This document shows, in pieces, positions 11,287 through 11,359 of a DNA stretch of 54,544 nucleotides. The notes beneath the pieces are model-generated. The model did no database searches. It saw only the letters and a program-made list of their open reading frames with translations, and had not been told where the DNA came from. The stretch comes from a virus, in the IMG/VR virus record IMGVR_UViG_3300045996_001382, positions 1-54,544 of that record; one strand, 5' to 3'. Positions within the stretch are counted from its first letter, which is position 1, and the number at the start of each line of letters is the position of its first letter. Position numbers and translations under genes: made by a program.

Positions 11287-11359
11287 TTGCGGGAGCGGGA
11301 CTTGAACCCACGACCTTCGGGTTATGAGCCCGACGAGCTACCAACTGCTCCATCCCACA
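11287..11359 (-). tRNA. tRNA-Met (anticodon CAT), initiator-type
   Basis: Hand-folded cloverleaf of 73 nt: acceptor TGTGGGA/TCCCGCA, D arm GAGC-AGTTGGTA-GCTC, anticodon arm TCGGG-CTCATAA-CCCGA, variable AGGTC, T arm GTGGG-TTCAAGT-CCCGC, discriminator A. There is no encoded CCA. The core is near-identical to E. coli tRNA-fMet, including three G:C pairs closing the anticodon loop. Confidence 0.9.

Follow-up and report, generated by a model that had tools for sequence, protein, structure and literature searches.

We conclude with moderate confidence that the complete phage genome analysed here (IMG/VR record IMGVR_UViG_3300045996_001382, 54,544 bp with direct terminal repeats, the whole of which we call the window) encodes a functional, initiator-derived tRNA-Met(CAU), an item of optional cargo which would serve mainly to add to or maintain the supply of start tRNA. 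Initiator-derived cargo tRNAs are a known kind of phage gene; what is added here is a recurrent variant of the acceptor end, in which, judging by sequence, the pairs U1:A72 and U3-G70 define a phage-enriched, initiator-type subclass. Opinions still differ on why tRNAs are carried by phages, a start tRNA being the case explained least.

A single tRNA was called by ARAGORN, a minus-strand tRNA-Met(cat) at 11286-11359 of the window, Rfam RF00005 matched 11287-11359 of the same strand with 66.1 bits and the minimum-energy fold of the 73 nt is a clean cloverleaf, all of which agrees with the 73-nt tRNA with anticodon CAT reported in a preliminary description of this DNA. The gene and its surroundings are laid out as follows:

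8882-10594: portal gene, followed by the protease, decoration and major head genes
10582-10941: small conserved ORF between the tRNA gap and the portal gene
730 bp: non-coding gap that holds the tRNA-Met(CAU), with TerL on one side and the small ORF and portal gene on the other
10957-10995, minus strand: second intrinsic terminator, a 14-bp stem with A6/U8 flanks (about -21 kcal/mol, z -7.2)
11110-11137, minus strand: first intrinsic terminator, a 10-bp GC-rich stem and U run (-19.1 kcal/mol)
11171-11261, minus strand: extended hairpin in the trailer of the tRNA, about 90 nt with about 25 bp in two helices
11287-11359, minus strand: tRNA-Met(CAU) whose body is of initiator type and whose acceptor end is remodelled, identified by ARAGORN, Rfam, direct reading and folding
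11368-11398, minus strand: promoter-like site found by direct reading, TTTG (11398-11395), 19 nt, then TATACTTG (11375-11368)
11579-11604, minus strand: terminator-like hairpin and U run after TerL (-12.4 kcal/mol, z -4.75)
11672-13744: large terminase gene TerL (phrog_15)

The genome also contains a full-length tmRNA at 32890-33206 on the minus strand (Rfam RF00023, 78.1 bits), which ARAGORN missed.

The body of the tRNA has the features of an initiator. Its D stem (GAGC/GCUC) includes A11:U24, the three G:C pairs of the anticodon stem are intact (G29-G31:C39-C41, i.e., 29:41, 30:40 and 31:39, read as GGG/CCC), the CAU anticodon stands in a CUCAUAA loop, the discriminator is A73 and CCA is not encoded by the gene. 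At the acceptor end, bases 1 and 3 are U where the bacterial start tRNA has C, and the pairs read there are a Watson-Crick U1:A72, G2:C71, a U3-G70 wobble and A7:U66. Thus the tRNA has a Watson-Crick pair at 1:72, where an initiator is expected to have none, and as regards the formyltransferase determinants, G2:C71 and A73 are present while 3:70 is U-G and not C3:G70.

We classified the tRNA by these identity elements and by its similarity to cellular tRNAs. Its 41-nt core, which runs from the D stem to the T stem, is matched exactly in 28 bacterial genomes from several phyla, and the identity of the body to cellular initiators is 91-99% overall. For E. coli it is 91.5%, at a median of four places per genome, in keeping with the four initiator genes of that species (gene count from PMC6265465). 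When the cellular CAT tRNAs of four genomes were compared with it, the initiator was 94-99% identical and the next CAT tRNA only 78-80%, and an origin from elongator tRNA-Met, against which A11:U24 and GGG/CCC also speak, or from a lysidine-type tRNA-Ile2 is therefore excluded. Derivation from a bacterial initiator is in this way supported by the comparison of sequences, and the earlier assignment to the initiators, together with the description of the stretch from D stem to T stem as a near copy of an initiator with its three G:C pairs, is confirmed by direct reading and by the genome matches.

The cellular initiators themselves have a different acceptor end from that of the phage tRNA. Position 1:72 is unpaired (C-A, C-U, C-C or U-U) in all of the roughly 65 that we read (some 30 matched sequences from the 28 genomes, and some 35 copies out of a Bacteroidota sample of 301 genomes). 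C3:G70 is present in nearly all, and a few have U3 paired to A70. The sampled Bacteroidota initiators (L033-L068, L306-L309) are mostly C1xU72, with some C1xC72, U1xU72 and C1xA72; most of them have no encoded CCA, and one group has U3:A70. In three Ignavibacteriota MAGs (L008, L017 and L019) the 3′ 52 nt of the initiator are duplicated about 350 nt downstream of the intact copy, with the second copy fused to an unrelated 5′ part, an arrangement that looks like an att-type remnant of an inserted element.

Among phages the form of the window's tRNA, with its 5′ UGUGGG, U3-G70, A73, CAU loop and initiator-type D arm, recurs widely. The UGUGGG 5′ end together with the D arm pattern (hereafter UGU-type) was found in 45 IMG/VR contigs carrying 31 distinct tRNAs; U3-G70 occurs in 44 of these contigs, and the 1:72 position is U1:A72 in 35 and U1-U72 in 10. 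The contigs span 25%-64% G+C and include crAss-like phages, jumbo-phage tRNA arrays and phages with a single tRNA, and the exact 56-nt core of the window's tRNA is absent from other IMG/VR contigs. No tRNA-like match was found in the 702 bacterial genomes sampled: a looser UGU pattern had none in 401 genomes from the phylum of a Bacteroidetes MAG, and a gap-tolerant one gave a single match, not tRNA-like, in 301 genomes from the phylum of a Janthinobacterium MAG, in which the reversed control pattern gave three. In an unselected IMG/VR sample of tRNAs whose anticodon arm and D stem are those of a canonical initiator, 30 of 33 keep a mismatch at 1:72, which makes the UGU form a minority among phage-borne initiators. 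A literature search found no paper describing the subclass. The preliminary description had read the U:A pair at 1:72 correctly, but its treatment of the pair as harmless does not hold for what is a conserved hallmark of a phage subclass, and it made no mention of U3-G70, which is likewise one of its conserved hallmarks. As a separate observation, a UGU-type tRNA lies beside a tRNA(CUA) and near the terminase gene in the crAss-like phage cr60_1 (24176-24465) and at no fewer than 14 IMG/VR loci (L315, L316, L327 and L330 among them).

The host of the phage is very probably a member of the Bacteroidota, because its TerL relatives carry the names of Cellulophaga, Flavobacterium, Pedobacter and Bacteroidota: the nearest cultured ones are Cellulophaga phage phiSM (48% identical) and Flavobacterium phages FL-1 and FCV-1, and remoter homologues bear Pedobacter and Bacteroidota names. 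A single-protein TerL search returned no relatives in viral or genome contigs, and the relatives considered here were gathered by an alignment-based search. In the closest of them (TerL 82% identical) 125 bp separate TerL from the small ORF and there is no tRNA, from which it follows that the tRNA is dispensable; phiSM has 145 bp in the corresponding gap, also with no tRNA, and other relatives have different insertions there. Optional cargo has a hot spot in the gap between TerL and portal.

Of the tRNAs called at 118 related loci, only four are credible, all of the Met(CAU) kind with initiator ancestry (L187, L190, L208 and L209), a fifth call, a 99-nt "Trp", appearing spurious. In L187 the tRNA occupies the same gap, between two terminators. 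In L190 (TerL 67% identical) the cassette is homologous to that of the window from the tRNA through the terminator, and this tRNA, like that of L303, shares the UGUGGG 5′ end, U1:A72 and U3-G70. A lone initiator tRNA had been presented as unusual, a view that we cannot uphold: similar initiator-type tRNAs are found in 255 deposited phage records, and within the window's own phage family the initiator-type Met(CAU) is the sole credible tRNA type near TerL. When six phage copies were aligned with eight cellular initiators, 94% of the cells of the cloverleaf were paired and ten pairs had changed on both sides, a result reached by 0 of 500 shuffles; the cloverleaf has thus been kept through compensatory changes and the phage copies are under selection as tRNAs and not decaying.

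The layout of the cassette suggests that the tRNA has a transcription unit of its own. The -7 box of the promoter-like site, TATACTTG, ends 8 nt before the 5′ end of the tRNA and departs at one position from the Bacteroidota -7 consensus TAnnTTTG, the TTTG lies at -33, and a sigma-70 scan placed TTGAAA-16-TATACT (10/12) on the same spot. Throughout the phage genome the combination TTTG-N18-20-TAnnTTTG is not enriched (2 found, 1.8 expected) and TAnnTTTG boxes occur at chance (75 against 73 +/- 8), with those in intergenic sequence about twofold enriched (19 of the 75, in 12% of the sequence). A perfect TTTG-N20-TACATTTG lies 3 nt upstream of the tRNA in L187, and in L190 the promoter-like site is absent and an ORF ends 16 nt ahead of the tRNA. 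The promoter claimed earlier, TTTG-N19-TATACTTG at 8 nt from the tRNA, is accordingly right as to layout and wanting as to conservation; we infer that the site at 11368-11398 drives transcription of the tRNA. Another perfect match to the Bacteroidota-type consensus, TTTG-N20-TATATTTG, stands at 11659-11690 on the minus strand, overlapping the TerL stop and upstream of the TerL terminator hairpin. That hairpin, at 11579-11604, would insulate the tRNA cassette from terminase transcripts. Between it and the tRNA promoter is an ORF for 55 aa (11410-11577, plus strand) with two hydrophobic segments, which may be a small membrane-protein cargo gene.

Downstream, the first terminator lies about 150 nt after the tRNA and is kept in L190 with two compensatory pairs, and the tRNA transcript probably ends there; the second was missed by a consensus terminator scan and found by folding. 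Both of the terminators in the preliminary description were therefore recovered, at 11110-11137 and 10957-10995, and its picture of a small independent cassette inside the head module is sustained by the promoter-like site, the terminators and the position in the gap. The trailer between the tRNA and the first terminator (about 150 nt) aligns with L190 4432-4608 at an identity about that of the tRNA flanks. Its extended hairpin consists of one helix that pairs 11261-11250 with 11182-11171 and another that pairs 11226-11211 with 11195-11183; in an RNAalifold analysis with L190 all 25 of 25 pairs form in both phages and 6 of the 25 differ in both bases (sliding the partners yields 0-1 such pairs over the whole structure), a count that comes from two sequences and a structure derived from those same two. 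The fold of the window's trailer beats all 200 shuffles (z -3.2), Rfam has no family match for it, a search for the motif returned L190 only and the trailers of other UGU-type tRNAs align with it just at a short AGGnTTATnAT motif. The hairpin may be a processing site for an RNase or a co-transcribed small RNA.

How would such a tRNA be made and used? Going by the anatomy of the cassette and by general tRNA biology, transcription from the Bacteroidota-type promoter would give a precursor of about 250 nt ending at the first terminator, RNase P would remove the very short 5′ leader and, as the gene has no CCA, cleavage after A73 would remove the 3′ trailer and the host CCA-adding enzyme would complete the end. 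Host MetRS would then charge the tRNA through its CAU anticodon and A73, and host formyltransferase would formylate at least part of the pool; neither deformylase, formyltransferase nor Pth (peptidyl-tRNA hydrolase) genes were found in the complete phage genome, which therefore depends on the host for these enzymes. The three intact G:C pairs would direct the fMet-tRNA to the ribosomal P site, and through such delivery the supply of start tRNA would be increased or maintained during infection.

Was the acceptor end also remodelled for a purpose? We regard it as possible, though well short of probable, that the UGU class is phage-restricted (in the sense of not having been seen in the bacterial genomes sampled, and with some IMG/VR records being prophages), has spread horizontally and has had its acceptor end deliberately remodelled to U1, a near-invariant U3-G70 and usually A72 under selection for a changed fate of the tRNA. 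That fate could be the use of one tRNA for both initiation and elongation, or it could be concealment from host factors whose target is the acceptor end of the host initiator, for example Pth or toxins that acetylate or transfer nucleotides.

A somewhat less likely explanation, in which the initiator body is a matter of ancestry only, is that the tRNA has a dual function or is mainly an elongator tRNA-Met, poorly formylated and used by EF-Tu at internal AUG codons. The E. coli initiator provides a guide here, as formyltransferase recognizes it chiefly by the unpaired 1:72 along with G2:C71 and C3:G70, and a Watson-Crick pair at 1:72 makes the formylated tRNA a substrate for Pth (PMC6265465). 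A U1/U3:A70 mutant of it, to which the U1:A72 and U3 of the phage tRNA correspond, reaches only 20-30% formylation, is bound by IF2 as well as by EF-Tu, initiates and elongates, and can by itself sustain E. coli (PMC6265465). The relatives of the window's tRNA have moreover relaxed the G:C hallmark: the anticodon stem is AGG/CCU in 26 of the 45 UGU-type contigs, L190, L303 and L209 have A:U at 29:41, and L303, L187 and L208 have a mismatch at 30:40; with the hallmark so eroded, efficient initiation at the P site may not be what the lineage is selected for. Weighing against this explanation, the window's copy retains all three G:C pairs and A11:U24, the single U1 mutant of E. coli is formylated nearly normally and elongates poorly (PMC6265465) and G70, not A70, is present in 44 of the 45 contigs, so that the pair differs from the U3:A70 of the engineered mutant.

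Less probable again, and in our opinion unlikely, is an anti-defence role, in which a spare start tRNA replaces a host initiator struck by a toxin and, thanks to its remodelled end, evades a factor that recognizes the acceptor end. Cleavage of the initiator by VapC is documented and phage tRNAs have been hypothesized to counter tRNases (PMC10264068), and the U1/U3-G70 end is both conserved and enriched in phages, which makes escape from an acceptor-end-reading factor a possibility. Yet the same survey found that phages tend not to encode tRNA-fMet where it is targeted by VapC (PMC10264068), neither a cognate toxin nor a host was identified, and the known VapC site is free of any escape change, the anticodon stem-loop of the phage tRNA being identical to that of cellular initiators. 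On that ground we rejected a VapC-resistant anticodon-loop variant. The earlier suggestion that the tRNA makes up for a depleted or cleaved host initiator is consequently tenable as regards an extra supply and untenable as regards a resistant copy, since the stem-loop is unchanged.

We consider it very unlikely that the tRNA has a non-decoding role, whether as a handle by which RNase P and RNase Z release the trailer hairpin RNA or as punctuation between terminase and portal transcripts; although the trailer hairpin shows compensatory changes between the window and L190, and the tRNA of L190 follows an ORF with no promoter, other members of the subclass have no homologous trailer, and the CAU loop, A73 and the cloverleaf are strictly kept across the subclass. 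That the tRNA is an artefact or a passenger (host contamination, an attP remnant or a tRNA-Ile2 of the lysidine type) can be dismissed as extremely improbable, for while tRNA-fMet genes are frequent integration sites, this one is a full-length gene within the head module, its body shares 94-99% identity with initiators, no match to a tyrosine (PF00589) or serine (PF00239) recombinase, and so no integrase or resolvase, was found in the whole phage genome, and contamination, which the preliminary description had named as a ground for refutation, is, like a host flank, excluded by the complete genome with its direct terminal repeats and by the homologous cassettes in related phages.

Taken as the result of a single window, a phage tRNA that would mainly support the supply of start tRNA is a modest finding, since the gene is optional cargo and its kind is known. 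What extends it is that the same acceptor-end form is present in phiSM-like myoviruses, crAss-like phages, jumbo phages and high-GC phages, which are unrelated to one another. Should selection lie behind this pattern, the subclass would be a defined and easily tested object that could show how phages retune translation initiation.

Compared with known systems, the phage tRNA is closest to bacterial tRNA-fMet, with which it shares the CUCAUAA loop with CAU, the three G:C pairs, A11:U24, G2:C71 and A73, and to which it is 91.5% (E. coli metZ/W/V/Y), 94% (best Bacteroidota copies) or, over positions 4-73, 99% identical (the initiator of an Oscillospiraceae MAG); it differs in its Watson-Crick U1:A72, in U3-G70 in place of C:G and in being phage-borne. 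With the phage tRNAs proposed to counter tRNases (van den Berg et al., 2023, PMC10264068) it has in common that a species targeted by toxins is carried by a phage, whereas its changes are at the acceptor end with none in the anticodon loop. The tRNA-Met of crAss-like cr60_1 (Buchavirus hominis, NC_055891.1, KNV49_gt03) is the same in its first 27 nt, including U1, U3 and A7, has the same U1:A72, U3-G70 and A73 and likewise lies directly downstream of the large terminase gene, but it has A29:U41 for G29:C41 and adjoins an amber-suppressor-type tRNA(CUA), and the two phages, a crAss-like virus and a phiSM-like myovirus, are otherwise unrelated.

The E. coli initiator's U1 and U1/U3:A70 mutants (Govindan, Ayyub and Varshney, 2018, PMC6265465) provide the comparison that bears most directly on function. 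They share with the phage tRNA a U1 paired to A72 and a U3, and the phage tRNA differs from the double mutant in keeping G70, which gives a U-G wobble rather than U:A, so that with U1:A72, U3 and G70 it is intermediate between the two. A position between these mutants implies a tRNA that is mainly an initiator with some leakage into elongation: by this analogy the acceptor end should make its restriction to initiation less strict, part of the pool being unformylated and usable by EF-Tu, and the formylated part should be open to peptidyl-tRNA hydrolase, although the formyltransferase of Bacteroidota may behave unlike that of E. coli. Finally, the E. coli mutants were engineered, whereas the form found in this phage is natural and is conserved in many phages.
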